Shown here: piece by piece, positions 223 through 11,917 of the stretch
Layout of the letters: every line of letters begins with the position of its first letter
How positions within the stretch are numbered: the first letter of the stretch is position 1
Assembly (NCBI GenBank): GCA_043750125.1
Contig: JAYVCD010000105.1
Span: forward strand, 1 to 15,156
DNA length: 15,156 nt
Direction: 5' to 3'
DNA from: Archangiaceae bacterium
Lineage (GTDB): Bacteria; Myxococcota; Myxococcia; Myxococcales; Myxococcaceae
The notes under the pieces: generated by a model
Databases searched by the model: none
The model's input: the letters and a program-made list of their open reading frames with translations, nothing else
What the model was told of the DNA's origin: nothing
Made by a program: the position numbers and the translations under genes

Positions 223-311
223 GGGACTCACTTCGCACTGACTTGCGGAATCGCGCTCGCGCCCTGGGTCGACGCTTCAAAATTTCAGGCCCCTGCCACC
301 ACTCAAGAAGC

Positions 312-1418
312 ATGAAAGCCTATTTGCTTCTCTTCGCTCTCATCGCGTCTTGTGGTGCTCCGGGCAGCGTCGGCACGGGCGGCAATACAGGGGTCGCTCT
401 CCTTTTGCAGCTCGGGCCCGACTGCCTGACACTGGCCAATTGCTGCAATGGCGACAGCAGCTTCCGATACATCGTGGAACTGAAGTCGGAGGCCTATTGC
501 GCCTATTACTTCAGTGCCTGCTCAAGCGCCGCTGCGCGAACGACAACCGCCTCGGCCCGTCCTCATGCCATCATCGAAAAGGCGGTGCTGCCAGGACAGT
601 CGCGGATGACGGAACGAACACCCATCTCCATGAAAGGCGTATCGATGGCGTGGTTGGTATTTCAAATCACAGGGTCGTCGTGGAAGCTGGGCCTGGTCGG
701 GTTGTGTCAGATGGCACCCCGACTCGCGGCGGGGCTGCTGGGCGGGATGATCGCAGACCGCTTCGATCGACGAAAACTGATGATCGTCCTTCAGCTGTTG
801 CTGATGCTCCAATCGGTGTTGCTTCTCGTCTTGTTTCTGTTGGGCCGGCTGACGTTCCCTTCGATCCTCGTGCTTTCCACCGTATTGGGCTTCCTGGAAG
901 CAGCAGCCCTGCCGACGCGCAACGCGATGCTGCCGCGCCTGGTCCCGAGTCAAATGCTCGAACGGGCCGCGTTCATCAACGCCGTTGCGCTCACGCTGTC
1001 GCAGACGCTGGGCCCATTTCTGGCGGCGGCTCTGTTGAGTGTCGCGGGTCTCGCCGGCAGTCTGATCGCCAATATCGTCAGCTTCTTCTTCGTTGTCCTG
1101 ACCCTGGTTCGCCTTCGCATCGGTCAGCCGATAACCGCTCGCTCGACTTCGGCGAACCTGGACAAGAGGCGGTCTGAATCGTCGCGGCCCGCGCAAGGCT
1201 TTTCACGGCGGCAAGCATTGGGCGAGCTCCTCGTAGATGCTCCGGAAGTCGCCGCGGGCTTTCAGATTCTGGAGGTCCTGAATCAGCCCTCCTTGAGCGC
1301 GGTAGAACATCAACCCTTCCGTCGGGGGCCGCATCTGCGCAATCTTGAACGCGTGTTTGAGAAAGTGCGCGCGCATCAGCCGAGTCGTGTCGGCGGTGGC
1401 GAAATCGAAGTCGGCTGA
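312..1418 (+). pseudogene. Chimeric or degraded ORF: Cys-rich lipoprotein-like N-terminus in frame with an MFS transporter N-half fragment (about 630-1121; DHA3/EntS/MFS_3-like)
   Basis: ATG at 312 gives MKAYLLLFALIAS-C (lipobox-like). From 630 it reads MKGVSMAWLVFQITGSSWKLGLVG...GGMIADRFDRRKLMI (MFS motif A) with about 5 hydrophobic segments. TM1 and the whole C-half are missing, and the tail runs 216 bp antisense into the kinase gene. Confidence 0.65.
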
Positions 1419-5796: not shown

Positions 5797-6668
5797 CTGG
5801 GTTGCTGCTCGCCGTGGCCCTGACCGCTTCGCCGCCGCTCGAGAACGACACGGCCTGGCACCGGCTGGTCGGGCTGATTCAATACATCGGTGGGGACTAC
5901 GCCGAGGCGGTGAACGAGGAAAACCCGGTCGAGCTCGCCGAGCAGCGTCGGCTGATGGCCGAGGCGACGGCGGCGCTCGACGCGTTGGGCACTGTGGGCG
6001 AGCCCTATCGTCCGCTGCTCAAGTCGCTGCGCGCGCGAGTCGACGAGGGGGTGGACGCCTGGGGAGTGACGGCGGGGTGCAACCGGCTGGGGCAGAAGAT
6101 TTTGATCGAGCAGAAGCTGCAGCGCGGTCCGCGGAAGACGCCCAACCTGGCGCGGGGGGTTGAGCTCTGGGCGAGCCAATGCGCGCTGTGCCATGGAATC
6201 ACCGGTGACGCGCAGACCCCGGTGGCGGCGGGGCTGAACCCGCGGCCAGCGAACTTTCACGACGCGGACAAGACGATTTGGCTGACTCCGTACCGCGCGT
6301 TCAACACCAGCACCTTCGGAGTCCCGGGGACGGCGATGGCCCCGTTCCCGTTGCTGTCAGAAGAGGATCGTTGGTCGCTCGCCTTCCACGTGTTCACGCT
6401 TCACCAGTTGCCGTGCGATCACGTTGCGCCGTTCGCCTCGCTCGAAGAGCTGGCCCAGTCGACCGACCCGGACCTGGCCGCCAAGTTCGGACTGGTGGAA
6501 GTCTCGTGCCTGCGCCGCAGACTGCCCGACGGCTTGGGACAAGTCGGTGGGACCCGCATCGCCGGGGTGACGTGGGCGGCGATCGCGAGCGCGTGGGTTG
6601 TGCTCGGGGGTCTTCTGTTCTGGCGACTCTCGAAGAGCCGCCGCTCAACTCCGGGCGGCACCGGCTGA
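5793..6668 (+). CDS. Exported mono-heme c-type cytochrome with C-terminal membrane anchor; resembles the N-terminal region of cytochrome c/FTR1 (PbrT-like) iron permeases
   Basis: TTG start overlaps the eutQ stop (TTGA 5793-5796). Short signal peptide MTGLLLAVALTA, then RLVGLIQYIGGDYAEAV...AEQ, PNLARGVELWASQCALCHG (CxxCH), PRPANF and GVPGTAM (likely axial Met). Ends in one TM helix plus basic tail (WRLSKSRR). Confidence 0.85.
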   Translation: MTGLLLAVALTASPPLENDTAWHRLVGLIQYIGGDYAEAVNEENPVELAEQRRLMAEATAALDALGTVGEPYRPLLKSLRARVDEGVDAWGVTAGCNRLGQKILIEQKLQRGPRKTPNLARGVELWASQCALCHGITGDAQTPVAAGLNPRPANFHDADKTIWLTPYRAFNTSTFGVPGTAMAPFPLLSEEDRWSLAFHVFTLHQLPCDHVAPFASLEELAQSTDPDLAAKFGLVEVSCLRRRLPDGLGQVGGTRIAGVTWAAIASAWVVLGGLLFWRLSKSRRSTPGGTG

Positions 6669-6977
6669 AGTCTTGAGCACCTCGAGCAGGTGCGCTGCGA
6701 ACTGCTCGGGGTATTCGCGGTGCATGAAGTGCCCGCCGTCCATTCGCACCACCCGATAGCCACCGGTGAACCACCGGGACGCGCGGTCGAACGCGGCTTG
6801 CTCCAGCAGGTCTGAAGAGCCGGCGAACGAAACTGTGGGCACCGAAATCTTCGAGCGGTTCGACTTCGCGAGCCACGGCCGCTGCGCGCGGTAGTAGCCC
6901 AGGGCGGCGTCCAGAGATCCGGGTTGCTCGAACGCCCACTTCACCAGCTGCGTCTCGGACGGGGCGAACTTCCAATC
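6645..6977 (-). pseudogene. C-terminal remnant of an alpha/beta-fold hydrolase (epoxide hydrolase-like)
   Basis: DWKFAPSET...PGSLDAALGYYRA...KISVPTVSFAGSSD...GGHFMHREYPEQF retains the acid and His motifs. There is no nucleophile elbow (GHDWG-like) and no plausible start; further upstream the frame is antisense to the GGDEF gene. Confidence 0.75.
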
Positions 6978-7010
6978 ACCGCGGCTGACCCGCGGTAGAC
7001 GAACGCCGAA

Positions 7011-8003
7011 ATGGTGCTGGGCGCGGAACAAGGCGAGAATCCCACGGTGGCCCAGCAGCGTCTGTTGATCATCTCCCAGCCGGGCCCCCTTCCGCTCTGG
7101 AGCTTTTCCGGGTTCACGGTCGAGCATTCCAGCCTGGCCGACGATCCGGTGCGGGTGCTGAAGGCGGGCAACTTCGACGCCGTGCTGCTCGTGGTGCAGG
7201 GCCCGCAGCCCGTGGGCGCGTGCGACCCGCTGCTCGCGTTGTGCGAGGAAGACGCTCTGCCCTTGGCGCTCGCCGCTGCGGGGGACGACGAGCCCGGCAC
7301 CCGATTGCTCGAGCAGCTCCCCTTCGACGCCTTCGTGGATCTGCGCTGGGACGTCCGGCTGGTCGAGCGGTGCCTGGGCGCGATGCTGCAGCGGGTCCAC
7401 GCGGGGCGAAACCTGGTTCAGATTCAACAGCACATCTTGAGCGTGGCGCGCGGCGAGGTGACCTCGCTGCAACACCTCGCGGTCCGCGACGAGCTGACCG
7501 GTCTGTACAACCTTCACCATTTCCGCGAGGTGGTGGGGAAAGAGCATCGCCGCTGCGAGCGACACGGGGGGACCTACGCGGTGGTGTTCCTGGACCTCGA
7601 CAACTTGAAGAAGCTCAACACCCAGCATGGACACGCGGCCGGCGCTCGCGCCCTCGTCCGGGTCGGACAGACATTGGCGGCCATCACCCGAACCTGCGAC
7701 TACGCCTTCCGCATCGGCGGTGACGAGTTCGTCGCGCTGATCGTCGAGAGCACTACCCCTGCCGCGGCCACCTATGCCGAGCGGGTGCGGCAGGCGGTCG
7801 AGCGGGACATCTACCCGGAAGGTCAGAGCACGGTGGAGCTGACGTTGAGCGCCGGCTGTGCCGGGTTCCCCGCCGACGGCGACACCAGTGAAGGCGTGCT
7901 CGCGAACGCCGACCGCGCGCTGTTTCGCGCCAAGGAACTGGGGAAGAACCGGGTCGTTTGCTACACGCACGAGCGTGGGGAGCCCGGAGTCCCCGCCCGA
8001 TGA
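7011..8003 (+). CDS. GGDEF-domain dinucleotide cyclase with degenerate receiver-like N-terminal domain
   Basis: DELTGLYN, FLDLDNLKKLN..HGH..G, I-site RTCD (RxxD), RIGGDEF, LTLSAG, ADRALFRAKELGKNRV. The N-terminus has a REC-like pattern (RLLIISQ...FDAVLLV) lacking the acidic residues. The start may be GTG 7047. Confidence 0.93.
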   Translation: MVLGAEQGENPTVAQQRLLIISQPGPLPLWSFSGFTVEHSSLADDPVRVLKAGNFDAVLLVVQGPQPVGACDPLLALCEEDALPLALAAAGDDEPGTRLLEQLPFDAFVDLRWDVRLVERCLGAMLQRVHAGRNLVQIQQHILSVARGEVTSLQHLAVRDELTGLYNLHHFREVVGKEHRRCERHGGTYAVVFLDLDNLKKLNTQHGHAAGARALVRVGQTLAAITRTCDYAFRIGGDEFVALIVESTTPAAATYAERVRQAVERDIYPEGQSTVELTLSAGCAGFPADGDTSEGVLANADRALFRAKELGKNRVVCYTHERGEPGVPAR

Positions 8004-8374
8004 CCGCGCAGCTGCTCGCTGGAGACTTGACCATCGATGTCGACCTCGCTTCGCCGGGGGCCATTCGCCTCGACTGGCGCGGGTCGAGCACCGCGCGCCA
8101 CCCCGACGCAGTCGTCTCTGCCTTCTTGTCGGAATGGGCGGCTCGGGCCTCGCAAACCGACGCGCGGCTCGAGCTCCACTTCGAAGCCTTGGAACGGCTC
8201 AATTCCTCGACCATCGCGGTGCTGGTTCAATTTCTTCAGCGAATGCGCGAGGTCAAGGTCACGGTGGCCTTGCGCTACAGCGGCAGGCTGCGTTGGCAAC
8301 AGGTGACGTTCGAAGCCCTCAGGGTGTTCGAGACTCCCACCGGGTGGTTGAGCGTCGAGTCCGTCGGCGACTGA
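8000..8374 (+). CDS. Small STAS-like / SiaC (DUF1987)-like protein, 124 aa
   Basis: ATGA overlap with the GGDEF stop (8000-8003). IRLDWRGSS...P, LELHFEALERLNSSTIAVLVQFLQ and V.V.L.Y resemble the SiaC 'YLNTSS' phospho-site region and STAS topology. Confidence 0.65.
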   Translation: MTAQLLAGDLTIDVDLASPGAIRLDWRGSSTARHPDAVVSAFLSEWAARASQTDARLELHFEALERLNSSTIAVLVQFLQRMREVKVTVALRYSGRLRWQQVTFEALRVFETPTGWLSVESVGD

Positions 8375-8500
8375 CCCGGCCGAACGGTCAAATCCAGTGC
8401 CAGTCGCTGGACTCCCTGGCTGTCTCGAAAGAGCGATCACGTCGTTTGACGTCCGTCTGGGCCCATGGGACCGTCTCGCGCAGAAGCGCTGGAGGTCTCG

Positions 8501-9466
8501 TTGCTGTCTTTGGTCGCCGCGCTCCTCCTTCGTGCCTGCGACCTGGACGCAGCCACCCACGCGCAGCTCGCGACCCTCACCTCGCCCGCACAGCGCAGCG
8601 CCTACCGCTTCGAGCTCTCGGTGCACGAGGGTGCCCTGCAGATTCGACTGTTGGGCGAGACCGGATTGGTGCGCTCGCGGAAAGTTGCCGCGACAGGTGC
8701 GTGCGAAGACGACGCGAGGATCGCCGCGGTCGTTCTGTCGGCGTGGATGGCGCAAGCGGAGCCCGCGCGAACCCCGCTTGCGGCGACGAAGCCGCGCCCG
8801 GCGCAGGTCCGGCCCGCTGCGTCACCCGTTCAAACGGCCGCACCGGTGGAGCCCCCTGCGGCTGTTCCGGTCGAGCCCGAGCCGGCGACTGCGACCCTCC
8901 CGCACGAAGAGATTGTCGACGACTCCGAGCTTCCGCAGCTGATCGCGCCGGAAGTGAAGCAGCGGTGGACCTGGTCTGCGTCGCTGGAAGCGGGTGCGGT
9001 GATCGGCGGAGGGGGCGCTCCAGCGCTGACCTTGCGCGCCGAAGGCGGGATGCGCCTGGGCATCGTGGCCGACCTCACGCTCGCGATGGAACGGGAGCAG
9101 GAGCTCGGAGCAGGAAGCGTCCTGTGGGCCCGCCAATTCGGCTCGATCGGGGTGCGGGCGCGGTGGCTTCCTGCGAAGCGCTGGCTCGTCGACGCTTCGT
9201 TGAGTCTGGCGGCGGGCTGGGTCTTTGCGCGCGCGCTCGGCTTCAACGTCGTCTCGGGCGCGGGCCGGGTCGACGCAGGCGCGTGCGGTGGAATGATGGT
9301 GGGTGGCTACGAGGGGGGCCCCTTCGGGGTGTTCCTCTCGGCGCGGGTGTGCGGCTGGCCCTGGGCCGCGCGGCTTGCGGTCGAAGGAGTCCAGCAGCCC
9401 CTTCAACTGCCGCAGCTCGAAGGAGTGATGGGCGTCGGGGTGATGTGGGGCGGCAGCGGTGGGTGA
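8501..9466 (+). CDS. Exported hypothetical protein: small N-domain, Pro/Ala-rich linker, C-terminal beta-strand-rich (putative outer-membrane barrel) domain
   Basis: GGAGG at 8491-8495 precedes TTG 8501 (the ORF track starts at ATG 8465). Hydrophobic N-terminus, CEDDARIAAVVLSAW helix, Pro-rich spacer, then alternating amphipathic Gly/aromatic strands ending GVGVMW. Confidence 0.7.
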   Translation: MLSLVAALLLRACDLDAATHAQLATLTSPAQRSAYRFELSVHEGALQIRLLGETGLVRSRKVAATGACEDDARIAAVVLSAWMAQAEPARTPLAATKPRPAQVRPAASPVQTAAPVEPPAAVPVEPEPATATLPHEEIVDDSELPQLIAPEVKQRWTWSASLEAGAVIGGGGAPALTLRAEGGMRLGIVADLTLAMEREQELGAGSVLWARQFGSIGVRARWLPAKRWLVDASLSLAAGWVFARALGFNVVSGAGRVDAGACGGMMVGGYEGGPFGVFLSARVCGWPWAARLAVEGVQQPLQLPQLEGVMGVGVMWGGSGG

Positions 9467-10052
9467 AAGGTTTCGGGCCCCCGACACCTCTACGAGGGTG
9501 CTCACCGCCGAGGCGCCCATTTCCTTCGAGGCCCAGCCCCGGCCGGCGCTTGCAGCCGTCTACGCCCAGCACGTCACCGCCGTCATCGGGTGGGCCGCCC
9601 GCCTCGGCGGACCGTCGGTCGACGCCGAAGACGTGGCCCACGACGTCTTCGTCACTGCCGGCAAGAAGTTGAGCGGCCTCGACGGCGACGCGCACCTCGA
9701 GCTCTGGCTCTTCACCTTGACCCGAAACGAAGTTCGCAATCGCCGCCGCCAGGTGCGCGCTCGAAGATTCCTGCTCGGGCTGTGGGGCAAAGGACTGTCG
9801 GCTGAAGATCCCCGTCCCCTGCCCCCGGACGCGATGGAGCAGGCCGCGACCGCGGCGCTCGTCCGTGCGGCGCTCGATCGGTTGACCGAACGGCAGCGCG
9901 AAGTCCTGGTGCTGTTCGAGCTCGAAGATCGTTCAGGCGCCGAGGTGGCCGCTTTGGTCGGGGTGAAGGAATCCAACATCTGGGTCGTGCTCCATCGCGC
10001 GCGGGCCGCGCTGGCGAGGGAAGTCGAACGCCTCGAGGAGGCTGCAAAATGA
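9459..10052 (+). CDS. ECF-family RNA polymerase sigma-70 factor
   Basis: Region 2: DAEDVAHDVFV...LWLFTLTRNEVRNRRR. Region 4: ALDRLTERQREVLVLFELEDRSGAEVAALVG......LHRARAAL. Start uncertain (GTG 9459 or GTG 9498). Confidence 0.94.
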   Translation: MGERFRAPDTSTRVLTAEAPISFEAQPRPALAAVYAQHVTAVIGWAARLGGPSVDAEDVAHDVFVTAGKKLSGLDGDAHLELWLFTLTRNEVRNRRRQVRARRFLLGLWGKGLSAEDPRPLPPDAMEQAATAALVRAALDRLTERQREVLVLFELEDRSGAEVAALVGVKESNIWVVLHRARAALAREVERLEEAAK

Positions 10053-10657
10053 GCGAAGAAATGACGGAAGCCGAGCGCCACGCTTTGGACCTGCTGCGCC
10101 AGCATGATCCGCTCTTGACCGTCCGCCCGGGTGCGGCCGCACGAATCGCAGCCCGGCTCCACCGGCCGGTGAAGAAGCGGCGCTCCGCCGTGCCCGTGGT
10201 GCTCGCGGCGATCGCGATCTCGACCGCCAGCTTCGCCGCCAAAAGGCTCTTCTGGCCCGCGCCGGTCGTTTCAGAAATGGCTTCAGCTCCTCTTGCGCAG
10301 GCAGTTCCGCAGCCGGTGGCCGCGCCGACCCCCCGCGGCTCCACTCTGCTCGAAGAGGCGCGGCTGCTCGAGCGGGTGGCGCAGGATCTAAAGCAGGGAC
10401 AGGTGACCCAAGCCCTGACCGGCGTCGATGCATACGAAGCGAAATACCCGTCCGGCGTGCTTCGACCCGAAGCCCTGGGTTTTCGGGTGCAGGCCTTCGA
10501 GCAGCTCGGCGCCGGGCACGTCACGGCGGCGATGGCGGAGCAGTGGGTGAGCGCTCTTGCCGGTCTGGGCCGATGTGCCGATGCGGCGCGGCTGGCCAAA
10601 CAGCCTGCCCAACGGGAGGCCTTCAATCGCGCGGTGAAAGGTTTCTGTTCGCCATGA
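10049..10657 (+). CDS. Putative single-pass anti-sigma factor with C-terminal TPR-like helical domain
   Basis: ATGA overlap with the sigma stop. Short N-domain, basic patch KKRR, TM (AVPVVLAAIAISTASFAA), Pro/Ala linker, then LLEEARLL...AL...Y..KYPSGVLRPEA helical-repeat motif. Anti-sigma role inferred from position and topology. Confidence 0.72.
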   Translation: MSEEMTEAERHALDLLRQHDPLLTVRPGAAARIAARLHRPVKKRRSAVPVVLAAIAISTASFAAKRLFWPAPVVSEMASAPLAQAVPQPVAAPTPRGSTLLEEARLLERVAQDLKQGQVTQALTGVDAYEAKYPSGVLRPEALGFRVQAFEQLGAGHVTAAMAEQWVSALAGLGRCADAARLAKQPAQREAFNRAVKGFCSP

Positions 10658-10681
10658 CCTTTCGTGAAAACGAGGCCGCAC

Positions 10682-11917
10682 ATGACTTCTTCGAGACTCT
10701 GGTTTGCGTTTGCAGTGGGTTCCACGGTGGGTCTGGTTGCAGGGTGCCAGTCGTACGACTTCGAGCCGGTGCAGCCGCTGGCCGTCTCGCAGACGACGCA
10801 GCCGACCAGGATTGTCGGGCGGCAGTTCAAGCCCAACCTGATGTTCCTGATCGACAAGTCCGGCTCGATGAACTTCGCCGCCAACGACACGGTGGCTCCG
10901 TGCACGCAGGGCTGCAACCAGACGGGACAGCCGGTCTGCGCGGCGGGCTGCAAGACGCGCCTGGGCGAGCTCAAGTCGGCGATGGGAACTTTCCTTTCCA
11001 CCCGCGGAGACCTCGCGTGGATGGGAATGGCCATCTTCCCCACCGCGGTCGCCGGTTCGAACGGGCTCCTGGACGCCTGTGGCGCCACCAGCTCAGCGGA
11101 CATTCGGGTTCAGCTCGCGCCGAATCAGGCCGACCTGCCGAGCGAGCTGATCGCCTCGGCCAACGCGGTGAACGCTCAGATTCAGAGCTTGAACGTCGGG
11201 GGCGGAACGCCGACCGGAGACTCGTTGAAGTTCCTCGGCGACTACGCCCCGCTGGCGGATCCGGATCCCAAGGTCTTGCGTGAAGACTTCGTGGTGCTGC
11301 TGACCGACGGTTTACCCAACTGCAACGCCAACAACGTCAACAGCTGCACCGGAAGCAGTTGCCGCTGCACGCTCGTGCCCGCGTCGGCCTGCGTCCCGAC
11401 GAGCTATTGCACCCAGGGCTGCCTCGACAAGGACAACTCGGCGGCGCAGGTGACGGCGCTGCGCAAGAAGAACATCCGGACGATCGTCATCGGTTTCGGC
11501 GCCGACACGGCCTCGGGCGACGGTCCGGACACGCTCAACGAGATGGCAGAGAACGGTGGCTTCGCCCGTACATGCAAGAACGGCTGTGGCGCGAACAACC
11601 CATGCGACACCGCGACGGGGCTGTGCACCCGAAAGTTCTACCAGGCCAGCAGCGCCGCGGAACTGGCGATTGTGCTCGCCGAGATTGGAGACGGCATCGA
11701 CACCAAAGGCATCTGCACCCGCGCGCTGTTCGAGCTTCCCAAAGACCGCAGCTTCCTCACGGTGATCGTCGACGGAAAGCATGAGGCCGAGAGCCCCACC
11801 ACCTGGACGTACTCGGCGGGCGTTGTCACCTTCACCGACGCGCTCTGCGACCGGATCAAGCAGTCGACTGCGGCGGCCCCGGTCCACATCGAGTTCCGGA
11901 TCGTGAACGCTCTCTAA
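10682..11917 (+). CDS. cglB: CglB-like adventurous gliding motility lipoprotein (Cys-rich VWA-domain adhesin)
   Basis: GAGG RBS at 10672-10675. Lipobox VAG-C followed by QSYDFEPVQPLAVSQTT...KPNLMFLIDKSGSM, as I recall from myxobacterial CglB N-termini. Complete MIDAS (DKSGS, GGTPT, LLTDGLPNC); 19 Cys; 411 aa. Orthologue versus paralogue cannot be resolved here. Confidence 0.85.
   Translation: MTSSRLWFAFAVGSTVGLVAGCQSYDFEPVQPLAVSQTTQPTRIVGRQFKPNLMFLIDKSGSMNFAANDTVAPCTQGCNQTGQPVCAAGCKTRLGELKSAMGTFLSTRGDLAWMGMAIFPTAVAGSNGLLDACGATSSADIRVQLAPNQADLPSELIASANAVNAQIQSLNVGGGTPTGDSLKFLGDYAPLADPDPKVLREDFVVLLTDGLPNCNANNVNSCTGSSCRCTLVPASACVPTSYCTQGCLDKDNSAAQVTALRKKNIRTIVIGFGADTASGDGPDTLNEMAENGGFARTCKNGCGANNPCDTATGLCTRKFYQASSAAELAIVLAEIGDGIDTKGICTRALFELPKDRSFLTVIVDGKHEAESPTTWTYSAGVVTFTDALCDRIKQSTAAAPVHIEFRIVNAL

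Follow-up and report, generated by a model that had tools for sequence, protein, structure and literature searches.

In a stretch of 15,156 nucleotides of DNA from an Archangiaceae bacterium (hereafter, the window), we identified a GGDEF cyclase gene (7047..8003, forward strand) whose product has an apparently intact catalytic core and an alanine in the position that normally reads the guanine base, that is, the position of Asp344 in PleD. The original prediction described this as a single variant gene; the variant proved real, and the gene turned out to be a member of a distinct subfamily of GGDEF proteins with a conserved partner-switch neighborhood. The distinctive features of this subfamily are a natural series of residues at the base-reading position of one scaffold and the linkage to a partner switch. 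The interpretation that we favor, while putting its chances slightly below even, is that the gene encodes an active cyclase with relaxed base specificity, which would accept both ATP and GTP, would produce a cGAMP-rich mixture of cyclic dinucleotides and is probably switched by the STAS-like protein encoded next to it.

The open reading frame of the cyclase extends from an ATG at 7011 to 8003 (+; 330 amino acids), and its translation includes ...DLDNLKKLNTQHGHAAGARAL...RTCDYAFRIGGDEF; the residue numbers used here are counted from this alternative start. The likely start is the GTG at 7047, which yields a protein of 318 amino acids consisting of a pseudo-receiver, a stalk and the GGDEF domain: the relatives are mostly 300-340 amino acids long, and the two closest ones are in register with 7047. 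The Pfam GGDEF model matches residues 157-314 with an E-value of 2.3e-34 and a score of 118.9 bits, compared to the cut-off of 23.8. The metal- and substrate-binding segment (7593..7634, +) contains D195, D197, L199 (a position usually occupied by Phe), K200, N203, T204 (usually Asp) and H208. This segment is followed by Ala212 (GCT, 7644..7646, +), which corresponds to Ser348 of GacA, and by the stretch that comprises the RxxD I-site (R227-D230), R234 and the GGDEF motif (236-240) with Asp238 (7689..7730, +). The alanine codon, the NT dipeptide (N203-T204) in place of the usual ND, and the intact D195, K200, N203, RxxD and GGDEF elements all are located where the original prediction had placed them; L168, H169, L199 and F305 were absent from it. 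L168 and H169 are encoded at 7512..7517 (+); the former occupies the position of GacA Tyr304 and of the canonical cross-dimer Arg, and is non-Arg as in Hypr enzymes, whereas the latter is found in this copy alone, all 40 other members of the family having Arg. This family, as delineated here, includes 41 distinct full-length proteins collected from a list of homologs, a profile search and genome searches, with one duplicate dropped from 42. All 13 catalytic and structural positions that were compared are present in the cyclase and, likewise, in 38 of the 41 family members, and the cyclase deviates at only three of the 59 well-conserved columns of the family alignment. With a Pfam score above the cut-off and with the metal-binding Asp, the Lys, Asn and His, GG[DE]EF and the phosphate-binding Lys all in place, the protein is predicted to be a catalytically intact GGDEF cyclase.

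An explanation of the GCT codon as a sequencing or assembly error, or as an Asp codon mutated in this copy alone, has practically no chance of being correct and is refuted at the level of the family. It could draw on the rarity of GCT, which accounts for 10 of the 181 alanine codons in three genes, and on the fact that the codon is covered only by contigs of one study: among the contigs of four sequencing runs that were compared, X5 misses codon 7644-7646, and the three covering runs belong to a single study. However, two contigs show no differences over the codon, namely, X2, which spans 6400-8600 with 0 differences and may be the source of the window DNA, and X4, which covers 7412-7920, also with 0 differences; X3 (7412-8200) has three differences, the positions of which are not listed. 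Moreover, the closest homolog, P0002, with 61% identity, also contains Ala in this position. The original prediction would have fallen had the close orthologs all possessed Asp; this residue is found in none of the 27 closest among the 120 listed homologs and in one of the 41 full-length members. Ala212 is a genuine residue, and the loss of Asp is not confined to this protein.

The best sequence match of the cyclase in the PDB is GacA (GSU1658/Gmet_1914), the Rec-Hypr GGDEF cGAMP synthase of Geobacter (6D9M, according to excerpts of PMC6456294), with an E-value of 2.7e-30 and 109 bits, the next match scoring 90; the family profile also retrieves GacA as the best match in the PDB (187 bits, next 174). 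The phmmer alignment with 6D9M places Ala212 on Ser348 and Asn203 on Asn339, with this segment free of gaps, Leu168 on Tyr304, and Asp238 on Asp374 (the GacA numbering follows PMC6456294). The same excerpts give, as the marks of Hypr enzymes, Ser or Thr in position 348, GGDEF rather than GGEEF, and a non-Arg cross-dimer residue that is linked to cGAMP-dominant output. The cyclase has D238 and L168, and thus the second and third marks (the family is mixed with respect to the latter, with Arg in 15 of the 41 members), and instead of the first it has Ala, Ser or Thr being present in 30 of the 41 family members; neither does it contain the Asp of canonical diguanylate cyclases. The protein is Hypr-like by two of the three marks, and it should not be classified as a Hypr enzyme sensu stricto, an ortholog of GacA or SiaD. 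The part of the original Hypr-like assignment that stands rests on a family rich in Ser and Thr, with Asp in the GGDEF motif of all 41 members and GacA as the best PDB match, whereas an alanine, lacking a hydroxyl, falls outside the published definition, which calls for Ser or Thr.

Comparison with GacA and the other Hypr relatives, Bd0367 (PMC9140294, in part) and MxGacA and GacB (parts of bioRxiv 10.1101/600031), reveals the same combination of a receiver fold with a GGDEF domain, a non-Asp residue in the base-reading position, the GGDEF Asp, a non-Arg cross-dimer residue and an intact RxxD motif. Unlike these enzymes, the cyclase has Ala rather than Ser or Thr, NT rather than ND, Leu rather than Phe in position 199, and His169; it also lacks the phospho-acceptor Asp that is present in the receivers of GacA and Bd0367 (PMC9140294 for the latter, as excerpted), lies outside the GacA-like clade and is linked to a STAS, kinase and PP2C operon. 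In GacA, Ser348 forms a hydrogen bond with the base, and a 'Goldilocks' model has been put forward under which the activity is sensitive to the side chain in this position; among canonical enzymes with the Asp replaced by Ser, one, GSU3350, remained solely a diguanylate cyclase, and four were inactive (all from sections of PMC6456294). The Asp of the ND dipeptide has been proposed to pair with a Tyr across the competent dimer (PMC8041772, in part); the corresponding residue of the cyclase is Phe305, and Tyr is found in 15 of the 41 family members. A literature search that did not extend to the original 2016 Hypr paper, which possibly contains mutant data, retrieved no Ala variant at the GacA-348 position. 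One match to D344A in the literature concerns an unrelated protein.

Within the family, position 212 is occupied by Ser in 25 proteins, Gly in six, Thr in five, Ala in three, and Asn and Asp in one each. The sister group consists of 15 GGDEF proteins (P0014-P0028) with intact motifs and more divergent N-termini, of which seven have Ala and eight have Gly, so that alanine recurs in P0126, P0002 and seven of the 15 sister proteins without disruption of the motifs. The third position of the GGDEF motif is Asp in all 56 family and sister proteins, compared to 32 of the 58 proteins of the outgroup with Asp in position 212; this is the pattern given for Ser/Thr enzymes in the excerpts of PMC6456294. 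The Asp of the ND dipeptide is found in none of these 56 proteins, compared to 51 of the 58 Asp212-type proteins and 39 of the 44 other proteins without Asp212, GacA included. It is missing also in two other small groups (P0087, P0088, P0100, P0105 and P0110, together with P0029, P0053, P0096 and P0103), one with Asp and the other with Ser in the specificity position, so this residue was lost more than once. The proximity of GCT to both the Asp codon GAT and the Ser codon TCT, on which the original prediction remarked, adds little, because the Ser codons in the 14 family loci are, in eight cases of eight, TCG or TCC; from these, the change of Ser to Ala takes a single base replacement and is the simpler route. 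We infer that Ala212 was probably derived from Ser rather than from Asp.

For phylogenetic analysis, we used 52 sequences, with five trait columns removed. Of the 56 proteins of the family and its sister group, 22 were included; the remainder consisted of 12 GacA-like proteins, which are proxies chosen by likeness to 6D9M and not by name, and 18 Asp-type proteins. The 12 GacA-like proteins formed a clade (99/91) that did not include any family member, so the tree places the cyclase outside the GacA-like clade. The family and the sister group formed a clade with a support of 0.975 in a FastTree analysis with all columns, and this clade was not recovered in the 52-sequence tree with the five trait columns dropped. 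Topology tests rejected neither the monophyly of the family with the sister group (p-AU 0.29) nor a grouping of the family with the GacA-like clade (p-AU 0.39).

The AlphaFold model of the cyclase (mean pLDDT 87.8, pTM 0.59) consists of a receiver fold (7047..7403, +), in which five strands alternate with helices, a long stalk helix (residues 133-158; 7407..7484, +) and the GGDEF domain. The best Foldseek matches are the Rec-GGDEF proteins DgcR, PleD and WspR, aligned over 313-334 columns; the cyclase resembles these proteins in its full-length fold, catalytic core and I-site, and differs from them in lacking the equivalents of Asp344, Arg300 and Asp336 as well as a phosphorylatable receiver. 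A Pfam scan of the N-terminal region detected neither Response_reg nor any other domain, and an Atlas search with the N-terminal domain returned only matches under 0.9. When the phospho-acceptor and conserved Lys sites are located by the strands of the model, they appear to be occupied by Val61 and Leu111; accordingly, the domain does not have the makeup of a phosphorylatable receiver and is read as a pseudo-receiver. Asp is found in position 61 in three of the 41 family members, and Leu in position 111 in 29 of the 41. Gln139 of the stalk, conserved in 41 of 41 members, is in register with S82 of SiaD and was considered as a mark of SiaC binding; it was set aside because PleD also has Gln in this position.

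The stop codon of the cyclase gene overlaps, within an ATGA sequence, the start codon of a gene for a 124-amino acid STAS-like protein (8000..8374, +) that resembles SiaC and slr1659. Its matches to the NCBIfam slr1659 superfamily (E-value 2.3e-7) and to Pfam STAS_2 (E-value 0.0019) are both below the cut-offs, and a profile built from 33 sequences retrieved the anti-sigma antagonist TM1442 (E-value 0.006) and SiaC (E-value 0.04), matches that are weak and mutually consistent. The N68-S69-S70-T71 motif of this protein (8201..8212, +) aligns with N67-T68-S69 of SiaC (6KKO); in the 33 sequences, N68 is invariant and S69, S70 and T71 are at least 90% conserved, and Ser69 is the predicted phosphorylation site. 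A comparison of the profiles of the STAS protein and the cyclase produced no match.

This neighborhood is conserved in the family: 12 of the 14 family loci, two of which come from one genome and several from related genomes, adjoin a STAS gene or an operon of kinase, STAS, methyltransferase and PP2C genes. The STAS gene is directly downstream in seven of these, five more abut the operon, and one locus has both; the kinase operon is found in six. In the two loci without partner-switch neighbors, position 212 is Gly in both. Scans for loci by sequence pattern yielded mostly ordinary GGDEF genes, with one family locus per scan. The operon encodes a HATPase-type kinase, a STAS protein, a methyltransferase-like protein and a membrane SpoIIE phosphatase (PP2C). 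In the genome analyzed here, the kinase, the methyltransferase-like gene, the phosphatase and another STAS gene are located on a separate contig (C354), and a third STAS gene is on contig C238. The C354 operon (24216-27834, locus L126), in which the methyltransferase-like protein is approximately 465 amino acids long, is conserved at loci L120, L123-L125 and L128-L145. The kinase is present in seven of the eight family-bearing genomes versus 47 of 401 overall, a count that includes the unpublished genome G162. No full-length family gene was detected in 18 kinase loci from other genomes (out of 46 genomes with a match; 7.5-10.5 kb each), so the cyclase seems to be an optional output of a more common switch.

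The genes for a kinase, a PP2C phosphatase and a STAS protein with a conserved phospho-site, at least one of which adjoins the cyclase gene in the 12 loci, correspond to the makeup of a SiaABCD-like partner switch; the SiaABCD system of Pseudomonas aeruginosa likewise combines a PP2C, a HATPase-type kinase, a STAS protein that carries an N-S/T-S site, and a stalked GGDEF enzyme. In Pseudomonas, it is SiaB and SiaA that determine whether T68 of SiaC is phosphorylated (bioRxiv 10.1101/674879, in excerpt), and unphosphorylated SiaC binds the stalk of SiaD and activates this enzyme, a known partner-switch cyclase, which makes c-di-GMP (excerpts of PMC8457831). Unlike the SiaABCD system, all components described here fall short of the cut-offs for the Sia and slr1658/slr1659 families (for example, 131 vs 290 for SiaD and 66 vs 700 for SiaA); the operon includes an additional methyltransferase-like gene, frequently together with a second STAS gene; and the cyclase, unlike SiaD, contains a pseudo-receiver and lacks the guanine-reading Asp. 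Most of the residues with which SiaD binds SiaC are not retained in the stalk of the cyclase; the mechanism is therefore carried over from Pseudomonas by analogy, and the chances that the STAS partner switches the activity of the cyclase appear roughly even. A literature search, the scope of which did not include the original 2016 Hypr paper, retrieved no Hypr enzyme tied to a SiaC-like partner.

Under the interpretation that we favor, the family would originally have been of the Ser type, with Ser replaced by Ala in this lineage. Without Asp212 and the cross-dimer Arg, ATP would no longer be excluded, while Asn203 would still hold the purine; given that ATP exceeds GTP in the cell, mixed binding would favor 3',3'-cGAMP, as modeled for GacA (PMC6456294, in part). 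Through its intact RxxD site, the cyclase would be subject to inhibition by c-di-GMP, which has been shown for GacB (an excerpt of bioRxiv 10.1101/600031). The receiver domain would not act as a phospho-switch, and the input would come, instead, from the SiaABC-like partner switch: the kinase and the membrane PP2C encoded on the separate contig would set the state of Ser69 in the STAS protein, which, when unphosphorylated, would bind the stalk and hold the dimer in its active form, in the way that SiaC acts on SiaD. Several observations weigh against this interpretation, in particular, the lack of a hydroxyl in Ala212 that might bond the base, the loss of the ND Asp and the private H169, and also the cross-dimer Arg that 15 of the 41 members retain and the loss of catalytic residues in four of the 14 genomic copies. 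The kinase loci that lack a family gene weigh against the role of the switch, which evidently has other outputs.

Some of these observations could be taken to mean that the cyclase has little or no activity and that its role is to bind a nucleotide or c-di-GMP within the partner-switch module, or else that it is decaying, with the catalytic constraints on the family relaxing. We consider this to be on the unlikely side, and yet there is much that is compatible with it: position 212 offers no side chain to read the base, the ND Asp is gone family-wide with its partner Tyr in a minority of the members, H169 is private, and the degenerate copies include one from the same genus (genome G449, with GGDSF in place of GGDEF). 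The family also has a patchy presence, being found in eight of the 401 genomes of the phylum sample and in eight of the 208 genomes of the taxonomic family, and the I-site is well kept across it. What argues against inactivation is that 38 of the 41 proteins, at 32-61% identity, retain all 13 positions, that Ala recurs in relatives with intact motifs, and that the third-position GC content (GC3) of the gene, 0.87, is similar to that of the neighboring genes.

Alternatively, the protein could be an active diguanylate cyclase with a preference for GTP, in which Asn203 and the shape of the pocket favor guanine, so that the system would be a myxobacterial analog of SiaABCD with c-di-GMP output. 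The persistence of diguanylate cyclase activity in the D-to-S mutant of GSU3350 and the higher affinity of GacA itself for GTP than for ATP (both in excerpts of PMC6456294) are in line with this possibility, as are the cross-dimer Arg in 15 of the 41 members, the Asp212 of one member and the product of SiaD (PMC8457831, in part); nevertheless, the loss of Asp in 40 of the 41 members is hard to square with selection for guanine, and the cyclase lacks both guanine-favoring residues, which makes this scenario quite unlikely in our view. A further, unlikely reading is that the family represents a separate GGDEF lineage that would make adenine-containing cyclic dinucleotides without a base-reading side chain and would take its input from a SiaABC-like Ser-phosphorylation switch, in place of receiver phosphorylation or a GAF ligand; in that case, the Ala and Gly members possibly would be rich in c-di-AMP.

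The genome contains two additional, Ser-type GGDEF genes (C279:1-1011 and C432:3-2012), which branch with the GacA-like sequences; by eye, the N-termini of their products are GAF-like. One of the six HD-GYP-type proteins examined (C149:3411-4838) has RPYQ, which excerpts of bioRxiv 10.1101/600031 describe as the signature of the cGAMP phosphodiesterase PmxA. Together, and independently of the cyclase gene described here, these genes make a cGAMP pathway plausible in this cell. A search of the genome for c-di-GMP-I/GEMM-I riboswitches produced no match, and the control likewise matched nowhere. Upstream of the cyclase gene lies a truncated alpha/beta hydrolase gene that retains just the part for the C-terminal half (6648 to ~7004, reverse strand; Abhydrolase_6, E-value 0.02), with 27% identity to the product of a gene on contig C426; the 5' half of the hydrolase gene is missing where the cyclase gene begins, and contigs of four runs cross the region of this junction, so that an insertion or recombination may have brought the cyclase-STAS pair to this place. 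Downstream (8465-11917, +) are the genes for a 333-amino acid protein without known function, an ECF sigma factor (9459-10052), a 202-amino acid putative anti-sigma-like protein with a weak TPR-type match, and the gliding lipoprotein CglB (418.8 bits, compared to the cut-off of 200), which points to a myxobacterial host. A gene at 243-1418 (+) matches MFS transporters over residues 130-308 only and looks partial or frameshifted.

Hypr enzymes are predicted from a single Ser or Thr residue, and the family described here presents a natural series of Ser, Thr, Ala, Gly, Asn and Asp on one scaffold, with which the need for a hydroxyl can be told apart from the mere loss of Asp. Provided that Ala and Gly members produce cGAMP, there are more cGAMP synthases than the current rule detects; should the family indeed be a separate lineage, the Hypr rule would widen from Ser/Thr to any small residue, and cGAMP signaling would be tied to a partner-switch input. 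Conversely, if the product is c-di-GMP only, or if there is none, this family would mark a limit of Hypr assignments made from sequence. Little is known about the inputs to which Rec-type Hypr enzymes respond, and the gene neighborhood described here points to a concrete candidate for the activator.
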